Assembly (NCBI GenBank): GCA_020049015.1
Contig: JAIFLP010000036.1
Location: forward strand, 1 to 55,104
Direction: 5' to 3'
Length of the DNA stretch: 55,104 bases
Source of the DNA: Bacteroidota bacterium
Lineage (GTDB): Bacteria > Bacteroidota > Bacteroidia > Bacteroidales > DTGW01
The position numbers were made by a program, and so were the translations under genes. Below, piece after piece: positions 11,437 through 16,135 of the stretch (positions are counted from its first letter, which is position 1; each line of letters begins with the position of its first letter). A model generated the notes under the pieces. That model ran no database searches and had not been told where the DNA came from. It saw only the letters and a program-made list of their open reading frames with translations.

Positions 11437-12132
11437 TTAAATTTCAAAAGCGATACCCTTATCGGCAAGAATTTTATATTTTGATTTATTAAATTTATAT
11501 AAGAAAGCACCTCTTTTAGAACCTGTTTTATCTTTAACATTAAGCTTTTCCATGAGCCCCAGATGGGCAATTTTTTTTCTAAAATTTCTTTTATCATATT
11601 TTTTTTGATAAATGGCCTCGTAAAGTTTTTGAAGTTGCGGGATGGTGAAGCATTCCGGTAATAATTCGAAACCAATGGGTTGGTGCTTTGCCTTAAGTCT
11701 TAGTTGATCAAGAGCTTTTTCGGCAATAGCACCATGATCGAACATCAATTTGGGAAGTACTGAAACCTTTTTCCAATAAGCATTATGTAAGGAAACCAAT
11801 TCATTATTTGACTCTTCTACTTTTATGAGAGCGTAATAGGCAATAGAAATGATGCGGGCACCCGGATCGCGATCAACATCGGTAAAAGTGTAGTATTGTT
11901 CAAGATAAACGTCAGAAATTCCCGTATGCTCTTTTAAAATCCGTTTAGATGCTTGAGCTGCGCTTTCATTAGGCTCTATAAAACCGCCAGGTAAAGCCCA
12001 TTCACCCTTACCCGGATTAAAAGATCGTTTGATAAGCATTAAATCGAGATCGTCACCATTAAAACCAAAGATTACACAATCAACAGCGACATAATAACGG
12101 GTATATTGGGAATAAAAAAGGCTCTGTGACAT
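11437..12132 (-). CDS. NrtR-family regulator (degenerate Nudix domain plus C-terminal winged-helix domain)
   Basis: 231 aa. The Nudix box is GGFIEPNESAAQASKRILKEHTGI, with RE->RI and EE->EH substitutions. The C-terminal half FTIPQLQKLYEAIYQKKYDKRNFRKKIAHLGLMEKL is typical of NrtR-like DNA-binding domains. Confidence 0.75.
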   Translation of the reverse strand: MSQSLFYSQYTRYYVAVDCVIFGFNGDDLDLMLIKRSFNPGKGEWALPGGFIEPNESAAQASKRILKEHTGISDVYLEQYYTFTDVDRDPGARIISIAYYALIKVEESNNELVSLHNAYWKKVSVLPKLMFDHGAIAEKALDQLRLKAKHQPIGFELLPECFTIPQLQKLYEAIYQKKYDKRNFRKKIAHLGLMEKLNVKDKTGSKRGAFLYKFNKSKYKILADKGIAFEI

Positions 12133-12149
12133 ATTAAAAATTTCTCCAA

Positions 12150-12171
12150 AAATATTAAAGAAATATTAAAG
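12150..12171. repeat. Perfect tandem duplication of an 11-mer (AAATATTAAAG x2) in the divergent promoter region
   Basis: Read directly: aaatattaaag aaatattaaag, 18-39 nt upstream of the NrtR-like start. Each unit contains the palindrome AATATT. Confidence 0.6.
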
Positions 12172-12199: not shown

Positions 12200-12207
12200 T
12201 AGCTTTG
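12200..12207 (+). promoter_or_regulatory. Candidate -7 promoter box (TAGCTTTG) for the Cys-leader/cysE transcript
   Basis: Matches TAnnTTTG, 22 nt upstream of the leader ATG at 12230. Confidence 0.4.
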
Positions 12208-12229
12208 TATTTGATAAAATGAAAAAAAT

Positions 12230-12301
12230 ATGATTCAAAAGAATTTTAACGGAGGTTTTATTTCAGTACAAGGTAATTGTTGCTGTTGTTTAATTCGTTG
12301 A
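12230..12301 (+). CDS. Candidate leader peptide MIQKNFNGGFISVQGNCCCCLIR (23 aa) with four consecutive Cys codons
   Basis: atg att caa aag aat ttt aac gga ggt ttt att tca gta caa ggt aat TGT TGC TGT TGT tta att cgt tga. It lies between a promoter-like box and an intrinsic terminator, upstream of a serine acetyltransferase gene. It is below the ORF-track size cutoff. Confidence 0.5.
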   Translation: MIQKNFNGGFISVQGNCCCCLIR

Positions 12302-12338
12302 AGGGTTTAAAAAGAAGAACAATATATTTATATCGCAG

Positions 12339-12366
12339 ACCCTTCCTTAAAGAAGGGTTTTTTATT
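12339..12366 (+). terminator. Intrinsic terminator (attenuator) 14 nt upstream of the cysE-like start
   Basis: ACCCTTC (12339-12345), loop CTTAAA, GAAGGGT (12352-12358), then TTTTTTATTT. An identical GAAGGGT at 12300-12306 can pair with the 5' arm instead. Confidence 0.6.
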
Positions 12367-12379
12367 TAACACATAAGAT

Positions 12380-13306
12380 ATGAAAGAAGACGGAAAAGCA
12401 GCTTATTCATTGGGAAAAGCGATAAAAGCCTTATCGGAACCAGAATCGTACGAAAGGGTATTTCACAATACCGTGATGACAGAGGATATGTTATCATTAC
12501 AATCGATAGCCGACATCATGGAATTATTGAATGCCATCCTATTTCCGGGCTATTTTGGTAATACTGGAGTTAAACCAGAAACTATGAAATTTTATATGGG
12601 AGTTAACATTGATAAGTTGTTTAAACTTTTACAAACCCAAATAAAACGCGGATATTGTTTTCATTGTGCAAATATAGATGGAACTGAGTGCAAGGATTGC
12701 AATAAAGATTCAACCGAAGTTGCATTGCAATTTATTGAACGATTGTCGATTATACGCGAACTATTAGCCACTGATGTTGACGCTATTTTCAAATATGATC
12801 CGGCGGCATTGAGTAAAGGGGAGATAATATTTGCTTATCCTGCTATTAAAGCCATGACTCATTACAGGGTTGCACACGAATTATATCAATTAGAAGTACC
12901 CATAATACCAAGGATAATTACAGAAATGGCACATTCAAAAACAGGAATAGATATCCATCCTGGAGCAAAGATAGGATCATTTTTCACCATTGATCATGGC
13001 ACGGGGGTAGTAATTGGAGAAACCTCAGTTATAGGCAGGAACGTTAGGATTTATCAGGGAGTAACACTGGGCGCCAAAAGTTTTCCGGTTGATGCGAATG
13101 GTAATCCTTTAAAAATAGCGCGACATCCAAAAGTTGAAGACGATGTAATAATTTATTCAGGAGCTACCATATTGGGCAATGTAACTATCGGCAAAGGATC
13201 TATTATAGGTGGTAATGTTTGGTTAACAGCAAGTACGCCTCCTAATTCTCGGATTTTACAAAATAAACCTCGAGAAACTGAATTTTTTGATGGAGGAGGC
13301 ATATAA
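12380..13306 (+). CDS. cysE: Serine O-acetyltransferase (long, EpsC/CysE-type)
   Basis: 308 aa. DPAALSKGEIIFAYPAIKAMTHYRVAHELY, TGIDIHPGAKIGSFFTIDHGTGVVIGETSVIGRNVRIYQGVTLG, and left-handed beta-helix hexapeptide repeats. Confidence 0.85.
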   Translation: MKEDGKAAYSLGKAIKALSEPESYERVFHNTVMTEDMLSLQSIADIMELLNAILFPGYFGNTGVKPETMKFYMGVNIDKLFKLLQTQIKRGYCFHCANIDGTECKDCNKDSTEVALQFIERLSIIRELLATDVDAIFKYDPAALSKGEIIFAYPAIKAMTHYRVAHELYQLEVPIIPRIITEMAHSKTGIDIHPGAKIGSFFTIDHGTGVVIGETSVIGRNVRIYQGVTLGAKSFPVDANGNPLKIARHPKVEDDVIIYSGATILGNVTIGKGSIIGGNVWLTASTPPNSRILQNKPRETEFFDGGGI

Positions 13307-13383: not shown

Positions 13384-14862
13384 ATGTCGCAATCGTTGAA
13401 CCTGTTCGCAGTTGATTTAGGAGCCAGTAGTGGCAGAACCATACTTGGAAAACTACAAAAAGATAGAATAGAAATAACCGAACTCACCCGTTTTTATAAT
13501 GAAGTATTAGACATTAGAGGACGCTTACATTGGGATGTATACCGTTTATTTGAAGAAATGAAAAACGGATTGAAGCAATGTGCCCATAAAGAAAAAATAG
13601 AAGTTCATGGTTTGGGTATTGATACATGGGGAGTTGATTTCGGCCTGTTTTCCAAAGACGGAACCTTATTAGGAGCGCCTTATGCTTATCGCGATAGCAT
13701 GACTAATGGTATATTTGATAAAACCTTTAATACCATTCAGAAAGAGCGCTTATATGCCCTTACTGGGATACAATTTATGCAATTCAATTCGGTATTCCAA
13801 TTACATGCATTAAAATTGGCTCAGTCGCCATTATTAGAAATTGCGCATAGTCTGCTTTTTATACCCGATATTTTTAATTATTGGTTTACAGGTGTTATGC
13901 GAAATGAGTTTACATTTTCCACCACCTCTCAAATGCTTAATCCGCATAAAAATAACTGGGAAGATGAGATTTTCATAACATTGGGATTGCCAAGATCAAT
14001 TATGCAAGCCATTGCATTTCCTGGAAGTACCATTGGGCAACTAGATCCAAATATTTGTAAAGAAACAGGCATCAACTCATTCCCAGTAATGGCTGTTGCA
14101 TCGCACGATACAGGATCGGCAATAGCAGCAATACCAGCTGAAGGAAACAATTGGGCTTATATAAGTTCAGGTACCTGGTCATTAATGGGAATAGAAAGCA
14201 AAACACCTATTATAAATGAAAAAAGTGCACACTATAATTTCACTAATGAAGGGGGTGTTGAAGGCACCTACCGGGTATTGAAAAATATTAGTGGTCTGTA
14301 TTTGTTAGAGCAATGCAAGCGTTCATGGGCATTAAAGGGAAAAGATTACAGCTATGAGGAATTGGTTGAGATGGCAAAATCATCGGAAGCATTTGCTTTT
14401 TTCTTAGATCCTGATGCCTCAGATTTTAATGCGCCAAAAGATATGCCCGCGGCTATAGAAGCCTATTTTGAAAAAACCGGACAAGGAAAAGCATCTACAC
14501 AGCAAATAGTTCGCGCAATATTTGATAGTTTGAGTATGCGTTACAAACAAGTATTTTTAATGCTAAAAGAGTTATCAGAACATTCTTTAGATAAGATTCA
14601 TATTATTGGAGGAGGTTCTAGAAATGAATTTTTATGTCAACTTACTTCTGATGCATGCGGGGTTGAAGTAGAAGCAGGTCCTGCAGAAGGTACAGCCATA
14701 GGAAATCTTATTGTTCAAGGAATTGGACTAGGAGCTATTTCCAATTTAGCTGCAGCGAGACGAATTGTTAAGAATTCGATTACTACAAAAACATACACAC
14801 CAAAGGATGCGGGAAAATGGGATCAATCATATCAAAAATATCTTAGTAAAATAACCAAATAA
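13384..14862 (+). CDS. rhaB: Rhamnulokinase (FGGY family)
   Basis: 492 aa. LFAVDLGASSGRTILGKL, GIDTWGVDFGLF, HIIGGGSRNEFLCQLTSDACG. Immediately precedes L-rhamnose isomerase. Confidence 0.8.
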   Translation: MSQSLNLFAVDLGASSGRTILGKLQKDRIEITELTRFYNEVLDIRGRLHWDVYRLFEEMKNGLKQCAHKEKIEVHGLGIDTWGVDFGLFSKDGTLLGAPYAYRDSMTNGIFDKTFNTIQKERLYALTGIQFMQFNSVFQLHALKLAQSPLLEIAHSLLFIPDIFNYWFTGVMRNEFTFSTTSQMLNPHKNNWEDEIFITLGLPRSIMQAIAFPGSTIGQLDPNICKETGINSFPVMAVASHDTGSAIAAIPAEGNNWAYISSGTWSLMGIESKTPIINEKSAHYNFTNEGGVEGTYRVLKNISGLYLLEQCKRSWALKGKDYSYEELVEMAKSSEAFAFFLDPDASDFNAPKDMPAAIEAYFEKTGQGKASTQQIVRAIFDSLSMRYKQVFLMLKELSEHSLDKIHIIGGGSRNEFLCQLTSDACGVEVEAGPAEGTAIGNLIVQGIGLGAISNLAAARRIVKNSITTKTYTPKDAGKWDQSYQKYLSKITK

Positions 14863-14869
14863 ATATAAT

Positions 14870-16135
14870 ATGAAGAAAAAATCGTTAGAAACTGCGTATG
14901 CATATGCGCGCGAAAGGTATGCTGAATTAGGAATAGATACCGATAAGGCATTAAAAGATTTAGACAAAGTATCCATATCGCTTCATTGCTGGCAAGCAGA
15001 TGATGTTGGAGGCTTCGAAAGAACTGACTCTACATTGTCGGGCGGCGGCATACAAGTTACCGGAAATTATCCTGGCAAAGCGCGCAATATTGAAGAATTG
15101 AGAAATGACTTAGAAAAAGCATATTCATTAATACCAGGCAAGCATAGGTTTAACATGCATGCTATTTACGGTGATTTTGGAAAGAAATTTGTTGACAGAG
15201 ATGCTGTTGAACCAAAACATTTTAAATCGTGGATAGATTGGGCCAATGAGCAAAAAATTAAAATTGATTTCAATAGTTCATTATTTTCGCATGTAATGGC
15301 CGATAGTGGTTATACGCTGTCGAGTCGTGAAAAGAAAGTTCGTGAGTTTTGGATTGAACATGTACAGAGATGTAGAGAAATTGCGGCCTATATTGGAAAA
15401 GAGCAAAAAGGACGTTCTGTTCATAATATTTGGATACCAGATGGATCAAAAGATGTAACTGTAAACCGTTTAGAGCATCGTAAAATATTAAAAGAATCTT
15501 TAGATACCATCTTTGAAAAGGAATATAATCCTAAAGAAATGGCAGATGCTATTGAGTCGAAATTATTTGGTATTGGAAGTGAGTCATATGTTGTTGGTTC
15601 GCATGAATTCTACATGGGATATGGTTTTACCAATAACAGAATGATCTGTTTGGATATGGGCCATTTCCATCCTACTGAATCAATTGCTGATAAAATTTCT
15701 TCAACCTTATTATTTAGTGAAGAAGTATTATTACATGTTAGTCGCGGTATTCGTTGGGATAGCGACCATGTTGTTATATTTAATGATGACTTGATACAAC
15801 TTGCATTAGAAATTGTTAGAGGTAATTTCTTAAATAAAGTAAATATTGGATTGGATTTCTTTGATGCCAGCATTAACCGCATAGGAGCTTATGTTGTTGG
15901 AACACGTGCTGCCCAAAGAGCCTTTTTGTTTGCTTTATTAGAGCCAACAAAAAAAATAAGGGAATATGAAAATAAGTCTCAAAATTTTGAAAAATTGGCG
16001 TTGATGGAAGTATCTAAAGACATGCCTTTTGGAATTGTTTGGGATTATTATTGTGCATCAAAAGGTGTGTTGATAGGAGAAGAAGTAATTGATGATATTC
16101 AAAAATATGAAAAAACAGTTTTAGCAAAAAGGTAA
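14870..16135 (+). CDS. rhaA: L-rhamnose isomerase
   Basis: 421 aa. ISLHCWQADDVGGFE, DMGHFHPTE and the overall length are typical of RhaA. Confidence 0.88.
   Translation: MKKKSLETAYAYARERYAELGIDTDKALKDLDKVSISLHCWQADDVGGFERTDSTLSGGGIQVTGNYPGKARNIEELRNDLEKAYSLIPGKHRFNMHAIYGDFGKKFVDRDAVEPKHFKSWIDWANEQKIKIDFNSSLFSHVMADSGYTLSSREKKVREFWIEHVQRCREIAAYIGKEQKGRSVHNIWIPDGSKDVTVNRLEHRKILKESLDTIFEKEYNPKEMADAIESKLFGIGSESYVVGSHEFYMGYGFTNNRMICLDMGHFHPTESIADKISSTLLFSEEVLLHVSRGIRWDSDHVVIFNDDLIQLALEIVRGNFLNKVNIGLDFFDASINRIGAYVVGTRAAQRAFLFALLEPTKKIREYENKSQNFEKLALMEVSKDMPFGIVWDYYCASKGVLIGEEVIDDIQKYEKTVLAKR

Follow-up and report, generated by a model that had tools for sequence, protein, structure and literature searches.

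A poly-cysteine leader ORF before a serine O-acetyltransferase gene of Bacteroidota: a candidate terminator-based cysteine attenuator

Transcription attenuation by leader peptides is classically represented by the trp, his, leu, thr, pheA and ilv systems of Enterobacteria. To our knowledge, textbooks do not list cysteine among the amino acids that are sensed by leader-peptide transcription attenuation, and the validated Cys-codon sensors that we know of are translational and come from mycobacteria only. Candidate Cys leaders were predicted before the cys operons of Actinobacteria (Seliverstov et al. 2005, PMC1262725). Leaderless polycysteine sORFs of Mycobacterium smegmatis were established as cysteine-responsive attenuators by mutagenesis and proteomics (Canestrari et al. 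2020, bioRxiv 10.1101/834739); their effect is translational, as a masked ribosome-binding site is set free. For Rhodobacterales, the predicted motif uORFC-8-2, in front of cysS, combines a terminator with two Cys codons in tandem (PMC8632094). In Bacteroidota, a Trp leader-peptide attenuator is known as Bacteroid-trp (RF01692, PMC2864571). Leader-peptide attenuators of ilvE, hisG and trp were proposed for Flavobacterium psychrophilum from a transcriptome map that is based on mapped start sites and structured 5' regions, and the supplement of that study lists no Cys leader (PMC9723704). Full-text literature searches, with most subscription journals outside their scope, found no paper on a Cys leader in Bacteroidota.

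The window, as we call the whole stretch of 55,104 nt that was analysed, belongs to a Bacteroidota bacterium. The source organism is represented by metagenome contigs only, and neighbouring genes in the window encode T9SS sorting domains and SprB repeats. A short upstream ORF with four consecutive Cys codons, followed by a terminator and a competing antiterminator, had been proposed to control a cysE-like gene (the original prediction). The gap of 247 nt between this gene and a divergent regulator gene holds all of the noted features, which are, with the two flanking genes:

11437-12132, minus strand: gene for a Nudix/winged-helix (NrtR/AraR-like) regulator, divergent from cysE
12200-12207, plus strand: putative Bacteroidota -7 promoter box TAGCTTTG, placed by position
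12230-12301, plus strand: leader ORF of 23 codons, ATG at 12230 and TGA at 12299-12301, peptide MIQKNFNGGFISVQGNCCCCLIR
12246-12301, plus strand: leader hairpin within the uORF, enclosing the Cys codons, -13.4 kcal/mol
12278-12289, plus strand: putative regulatory run of four Cys codons, TGT TGC TGT TGT, the sole such run in the window
12300-12308, plus strand: 5' strand of the candidate antiterminator, GAAGGGTTT, identical to the 3' arm of the terminator and overlapping with the stop codon
12337-12345, plus strand: shared strand AGACCCTTC, partner of 12300-12308 (antiterminator) or of 12352-12360 (terminator)
12352-12360, plus strand: 3' arm of the terminator, GAAGGGTTT, from the terminator scan
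12361-12367, plus strand: TTTATTT, the T-rich tail of the intrinsic terminator, with 12 nt left to the cysE ATG
12380-13306, plus strand: gene for a serine O-acetyltransferase of 308 aa, CysE/EpsC type, the presumed regulated gene, with NCBIfam, TIGR and PDB matches

Serine O-acetyltransferase catalyses the committed step of cysteine synthesis. The product of 12380-13306 matched NCBIfam NF041874 with 150.4 bits (cut-off 150), TIGR01172 with an E-value of 2e-47 and the PDB entry 3f1x with an E-value of 5e-103; its nearest acetyltransferase relatives share only 64-66 % identity. In many relatives the orthologous gene overlaps an upstream cysK in an operon, and the cysK of these operons reached 453-468 bits with TIGR01139 (cut-off 351). 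The overlap supports a function of the EpsC-type acetyltransferase family in cysteine synthesis, a role that had originally been argued from the leader.

The window contains the motif TAnnTTTG less often than expected (74 versus 87), thus the motif is not enriched and was dropped as statistical evidence for a promoter. It serves as a positional hint: between 10857 and 13710 the plus strand has a single copy, at 12200-12207, and by position and orientation this copy is a putative promoter. The cysE gene has no second candidate TAnnTTTG box, and none lies between 12208 and the ATG. Because no other box follows 12207 and only 12 nt separate the T-run from the ATG, cysE would have to be transcribed through the terminator. 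The candidate box ends 22 nt before the ATG of the leader ORF; the transcript would start at about 12212-12216, with a leader of about 15 nt before the ORF. The leader ORF sits between the putative promoter and cysE, has an A-rich start context (AAAAAAAT ATG) and is presumably translated.

Runs of at least four TGY codons are rare by chance: counted over both strands of the 55-kb window, there is one, compared to 0.10 expected from Markov-1 randomisations. Eight other Cys runs, of three codons, lack an in-frame ATG or lie within genes; they were discarded as leaders for their location in genes, missing start codon or misplacement. A microsatellite of variable length had been named as an observation that would speak against a regulatory run. 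Tandem Repeats Finder did not call the run a tandem repeat, and the uORF, the Cys run and the helix arms are identical, with no change in run length, in four further metagenome contigs of the same species; the microsatellite idea was rejected. The only contig with changes, L162, departs from the window at 12228 (ATG position -2), at 12334 and by a 1-nt deletion at 12326, all outside codons and helices, with 12326 and 12334 in the antiterminator loop. Strain variants are thus limited to loops and the ATG position -2, with zero helix or codon changes.

The box TAGCTTTG, the uORF and the Cys run were present exactly as the original prediction had described them, while its terminator needed some revision. 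The terminator scan found an intrinsic terminator at 12337-12360 with nine pairs, four of them G-C, a loop of six nucleotides (CTTAAA) and a T-run. The proposed arms ACCCTTC (12339-12345) and GAAGGGT (12352-12358) around CTTAAA are part of it, but the stem is longer, 9 bp formed by 12337-12345 and 12352-12360. The tail after GAAGGGT reads TTTTTATTT; it is T-rich as described, but has one T fewer, ends at 12367 and leaves 12 nt, not 14, to the ATG. Similarly, the second copy of GAAGGGT at 12300-12306 does overlap the stop codon, but it belongs to a longer exact direct repeat: GAAGGGTTT with 9 nt occurs at 12300-12308 and at 12352-12360, and therefore the terminator and antiterminator helices both have 9 bp. 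The terminator hairpin (12337-12345 with 12352-12360) has a stability of -11.3 kcal/mol and its stem ends 20 nt before the ATG. The antiterminator (12300-12308 with 12337-12345), with 9 bp including one G-U and a 28-nt loop, is slightly weaker with -9.6 kcal/mol. Both helices require the same strand and are mutually exclusive. No T-run is present on the strand opposite the terminator, therefore the terminator acts on the plus strand only. In the absence of a ribosome, the leader hairpin at 12246-12301 has pair probabilities of 0.87-0.99; it is possibly a pause or '1:2' element. Pairing of 12276-12293 with 12306-12323 as a fourth segment was weak (-7.3 kcal/mol, reached by 13 of 200 shuffles), was missing from the MFE folds and was left out of the model.

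The stability of the whole-leader fold is not unusual (z -1.2), and terminator-like sites in a 2-kb stretch occur at about the chance rate (one found, 1.4 expected). Such values would be obtained for a chance ORF in AT-rich intergenic DNA, or if the 9-nt repeats were transcription-factor sites next to an ordinary terminator-like palindrome, and a distance of 52 bp between the repeats, about five helical turns, is in line with DNA sites. The repeat copies are, however, exactly the strands required for mutually exclusive RNA helices, and a related locus (L168, described below) keeps the complementarity with a different sequence extent. Together with the statistics of the Cys run and its recurrence in relatives, given below, this makes chance or DNA sites a scarcely credible account of the leader.

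Probably, the serine O-acetyltransferase gene is under ribosome-mediated transcription attenuation by this leader peptide, with charged tRNA-Cys as the signal. The title of the original prediction called the attenuator translational, whereas the mechanism described there is transcription attenuation. Transcription would begin just past 12207, and the leader ORF would be translated while it emerges. With cysteine in plentiful supply, the ribosome would clear the four Cys codons and arrive at the stop codon 12299-12301, where its footprint would lie over GAAGGGTTT at 12300-12308 and leave 12337-12345 unpaired. The free strand would then join the second GAAGGGTTT at 12352-12360, and hairpin and T-run would release the RNA polymerase 12 nt before cysE. 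With scarce Cys-tRNA, the ribosome would stall while its A site is on a Cys codon, and its leading edge would be at about 12290-12299. The stall would expose 12300-12308 for pairing with 12337-12345 as soon as this strand is made, the terminator would be pre-empted and transcription would read through into cysE.

Both states were represented by thermodynamic folding with an assumed ribosome footprint of 28 nt, by which a ribosome on the stop codon masks 12284-12311. In the RNA up to 12346, the antiterminator had a probability of 1.0 without ribosome and also with the A site on any of Cys1 to Cys4; it dropped to 0 with the ribosome on the stop codon. These nascent-RNA probabilities, and the energies of the two helices, support the proposed two-state switch. 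The full leader at equilibrium prefers the terminator in every state (0.78-1.0), with a stalled ribosome still at 0.78-0.97, and therefore the switch would have to be kinetic. Kinetic switching is usual in other attenuators. The distances are suitable for it: a ribosome close behind the polymerase would gain the stop codon at about the time when the polymerase is upstream of 12337, and a dwell at the stop codon for only about 35-65 nt of further transcription would suffice. Since 12300-12308 is unsequestered in an untranslated leader, read-through is the predicted default and translation as far as the stop codon is predicted to cause termination.

The equilibrium preference for the terminator hairpin in all states and the position of this hairpin, only 20 nt before the ATG, would also suit a poly-Cys uORF that senses cysteine with an output other than termination, be it the initiation of cysE translation, Rho-dependent polarity or mRNA stability; the hairpin would then mainly be an RNA structure near the cysE start. 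Bacteroidota rarely use Shine-Dalgarno pairing, therefore such an output would find no Shine-Dalgarno sequence to sequester, and no SD-like sequence or pairing over the cysE start was seen in the sequence and folds. The relatives of the locus bear on both outputs.

In total, 179 loci encoding relatives of the acetyltransferase were collected and the operon 5' end was located for each. A metagenome scan with the single protein yielded mostly distant acetyltransferases (46-50 % identity) and added only L083. A conserved mini-ORF with a Cys run was expected for orthologues if the leader is regulatory, and six further independent loci indeed start their operon with a poly-Cys uORF:

L001: leader peptide MLHLSFIAFSFCCCRCCK, operon cysE
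L179: leader peptide MPLFTFIKYSLACCCIC, operon cysE
L019 (Prolixibacteraceae MAG): leader peptide ending in YHYSCCCCIC, operon cysK-cysE
L172: leader peptide MSFALSCIVRCCCHCC, operon cysK-cysE
L083 (60 % G+C): leader peptide ending in GRCRCC, operon cysK-cysE
L168: leader peptide ending in MMCCCSVCFDVKDRLHLI, operon O-acetylhomoserine sulfhydrylase-cysK-cysE

Of 71 non-redundant loci, six had an ATG-sORF of at most 61 aa with four or more Cys within seven codons upstream in sense orientation, versus 0.06 in randomisations (maximum 2 in 200) and none on the antisense strand; L083, with only three Cys in seven codons, is outside this count. An origin of the leader ORF by chance is excluded by these numbers and is largely refuted. 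Not counted were sORFs with three Cys in L046, L007, L012, L039 and L067, which are at chance level, as randomised loci with at least three Cys had a mean of 1.55 per shuffle. Cys-run matches in L071, L073, L086 and L008 were discarded for their location in coding regions, the lack of a start codon or an unsuitable position.

The peptides of the seven loci have no common residues, length or spacing beyond the Cys run near the C-terminus. Conservation of the Cys run alone points to a codon sensor and not to a functional peptide. A Cys-rich micropeptide with a metal-binding, redox or modified function, expressed from its own terminated unit and adjacent to cysE incidentally or for co-expression, could account for the good A-rich start context, the terminator after the ORF and an ORF that is invariant in four strain contigs. 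Besides the divergent peptides, the constant location argues against it: the ORFs are always at the 5' end of a cysteine-synthesis operon and on the sense strand only. Past the terminator there is neither room nor a motif for a separate cysE promoter, and no modification or export genes are adjacent. We consider a functional micropeptide highly improbable and continue with the codon sensor.

The sensor is not a general property of the enzyme family. Most orthologous loci have no poly-Cys uORF, among them the closest relatives at 64-66 % identity, and none was present in Bacteroides and Prevotella loci. Its distribution on a neighbour-joining tree of the enzyme is patchy: the window, L168 and L172 cluster with the leaderless L165 and with the degenerate L176, which has two Cys codons, no ATG and a retained hairpin. 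No leader was present in a sister clade, whose enzymes have 311 aa and whose 5' UTR is short.

Among the loci with a poly-Cys uORF, only L168 shares the antiterminator-copy geometry of the window. Its terminator, GCCCTTCA-CTAAC-TGAAGGGC followed by a T-run, has a stability of -12.0 kcal/mol. A GTGAAGG...GCC copy lies 3' of the Cys codons and pairs with the 5' arm of the terminator in the nascent RNA; with the stop codon covered by a ribosome this pairing is no longer formed, and the copy then pairs with an upstream segment, thus L168 has a full four-segment layout. The comparison of helices is limited to the two alignable leaders, window and L168, and L168 has both helices with shifted extent. 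A second, minimal architecture is found in L001 and L179, where the Cys codons (TGTTGT) themselves are the 5' arm of the terminator hairpin, paired with a downstream ACAACA; the stop codon is in the loop and a T-run follows. The classical model of alternative helices does not explain how a stalled and a passing ribosome would differ in this layout, therefore the minimal type may work by direct ribosome occlusion or another mechanism.

The three remaining loci, L019, L083 and L172, have no canonical terminator, thus the sensor is conserved and the output module varies. L019 has a long-range pairing of 9 bp between AATTCGTTT and AAACGAATT that ends 4 nt before the cysK ATG. Among the relatives the output may not always be transcription termination, and this agrees with the validated mycobacterial Cys uORFs, which act on translation (10.1101/834739). 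For the window, an output other than termination is nevertheless unlikely. Window and L168 have textbook terminators, with G+C-rich stems of 8-9 bp, stabilities of -11 to -12 kcal/mol and T-runs, and an upstream copy of the 3' arm in both loci is hard to explain unless it is an antiterminator. Transcription attenuation is thus kept as the reading for these two.

Taken together, the loci suggest, as a tentative generalization for which we would claim less than an even chance, that cysE, cysK-cysE and related operons are recurrently headed by poly-Cys leader ORFs of one family, in environmental Bacteroidota as well as in at least one unrelated lineage that is GC-rich. The family would have two architectures, one with an antiterminator copy of the terminator arm (window and L168) and one with Cys codons as the 5' arm of the terminator (L001 and L179), and would represent a cysteine 'ribulon' that relies on intrinsic termination, in a phylum without Shine-Dalgarno initiation.

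If the model is true, the terminator-based Cys attenuator of Bacteroidota is the same solution reached independently in a third phylum, the coupling of ribosome and polymerase is usable in bacteria without Shine-Dalgarno initiation, and cysteine biosynthesis is the true function of the long EpsC-type serine acetyltransferases in Bacteroidota. In practical terms, the leader would offer a compact cysteine-responsive control element and a search signature, a Cys run in a uORF before cys genes, for the annotation of regulation in uncultured Bacteroidota. The principle will not surprise specialists; the value would lie in a terminator-based cysteine attenuator, in its several architectures and in the minimal type with Cys codons as hairpin arm (L001, L179). 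The original prediction knew of no described Cys-codon leader, and its claim of novelty was therefore overstated, as such leaders were described earlier (bioRxiv 10.1101/834739, PMC1262725, PMC8632094).

No known leader or riboswitch was matched in Rfam; besides folding and the comparison of orthologues, this was a further computational check named by the original prediction, and its core reading withstood all of them. With permissive E-values the window leader had no match at gathering threshold; the best sub-threshold models, PyrG_leader (22.9 bits, threshold 65) and Phe_leader (22.8 bits, threshold 55), align to the terminator only. Scans at gathering thresholds, covering the complete window and seven related loci (the six with poly-Cys uORFs and L176), retrieved only tRNAs. 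The window leader has accordingly no sequence or covariance-model similarity to the leaders of Rfam, and its relation to the described systems is one of design. With the classical attenuators, and with Bacteroid-trp and the ilvE and hisG leaders, it has in common that a gene for amino-acid biosynthesis is preceded by a short uORF in its 5' leader. As in the classical cases, a run of cognate codons lies near the stop codon, an intrinsic terminator directly precedes the structural gene, an alternative helix shares a strand with the terminator, and the position of the ribosome would select the helix. In contrast to them, the window leader would sense cysteine, and its design has effectively three segments, with an antiterminator strand that overlaps the stop codon and no upstream sequestration. 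Unlike the trp leader, it is predicted to read through and not to terminate when it is untranslated.

The mycobacterial polycysteine sORFs are similar in having consecutive Cys codons (at least two to four) in a short first cistron of a cysteine-metabolism operon, in the relief of repression by stalling on the Cys tract, as modelled for the window, and in several independent origins. The mycobacterial ORFs are leaderless, whereas the uORF of the window would have a leader of about 15 nt. The dissected mycobacterial case has a sequestered ribosome-binding site and no terminators, in contrast to the strong intrinsic terminator of the window without a Shine-Dalgarno logic; the phyla are different and there is no homology. 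The uORFC-8-2 motif also combines tandem Cys codons in a uORF with a terminator stem and U-run, and is likewise a predicted ribosome-mediated transcription attenuator. It controls cysteinyl-tRNA synthetase, while the window leader would control biosynthesis. The motif comes from Alphaproteobacteria, and its structure is another one, with two Cys codons at the fixed positions 14-15 inside the first stem. The Cys codons of the window lie upstream of the switch helices; in this respect the 'type A' relatives L001 and L179, with Cys codons in the stem, are closer to uORFC-8-2 than the window. Judged by its sequence, and with no homology to the described Cys leaders, the candidate attenuator of the window is a well-supported addition to the known class of leader-peptide attenuators, in a new phylum and with a new target operon.

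The cysE gene, encoding the serine O-acetyltransferase, and its Cys-codon leader appear to be placed between a sugar-catabolism operon and the likely regulator of that operon, since rhamnose genes lie on one side, separated from cysE by a gap of 77 nt, and an AraR/NrtR-type regulator gene on the opposite side. The features of this neighbourhood in the window are:

11437-12132, minus strand: gene of an NrtR/AraR-like Nudix regulator, divergent from cysE
12147-12154, minus strand: candidate -7 box of the divergent regulator gene
12150-12171: perfect tandem 11-mer, AAATATTAAAG x2, adjoining the regulator gene start and the candidate -7 box
12219-12233: four-codon mini-ORF ATG AAA AAA ATA TGA (MKKI and stop)
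12656-12700: CxxC...CxxC motif, RGYCFHCANIDGTECKDC, residues 93-107 of the acetyltransferase (C93, C96, C104, C107)
13384-16135: rhamnulokinase and L-rhamnose isomerase genes, after cysE

The tandem 11-mer may be an operator. Within the regulator gene, 547 nt (11489-12035) are replaced by about 93 nt in three of the four metagenome contigs of the same organism (L161, L163 and L164), thus, judged from these contigs, the regulator is disrupted or absent in some strains. Leader and cysE are the same as in the window in these three contigs despite the replacement. In the fourth, L162, three of the four differences to the window over the 3.9 kb compared fall inside the 196-nt leader (12228, 12326 and 12334), none of them in the codons of the leader ORF or in the antiterminator and terminator helices. 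The unpaired spacer of the leader seems to be unusually variable, or else prone to assembly errors. The mini-ORF starts a few nucleotides 3' of the likely, predicted transcription start, its stop overlaps the ATG of the leader ORF (ATGA), and it could affect initiation there.

In the acetyltransferase, the CxxC...CxxC motif is situated in the N-terminal domain of the family. The motif is invariant or nearly so in an alignment of 32 sequences, so the enzyme encoded behind the Cys leader may contain a site for metal binding or redox chemistry.

The leaders of relatives carried the following elements:

L001, 1405-1440: Cys-codon hairpin before a T-run
L179, 1122-1165: the same
L176, 118-154: the same
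L019, 438-446 and 531-539: long-range inverted repeat, 9 bp without mismatch, AATTCGTTT / AAACGAATT

In the three hairpins the Cys codons TGTTGT are paired with ACAACA further 3', and the loop contains the stop codon. Since L176 has kept the hairpin but has just two Cys codons and no ATG, its leader seems to be in decay. No terminator was present in the leader of L019, a cysK-cysE locus. Its inverted repeat joins the leader ORF to a position 4 nt before the cysK ATG, and this arrangement hints at an output at the level of translation in this lineage.
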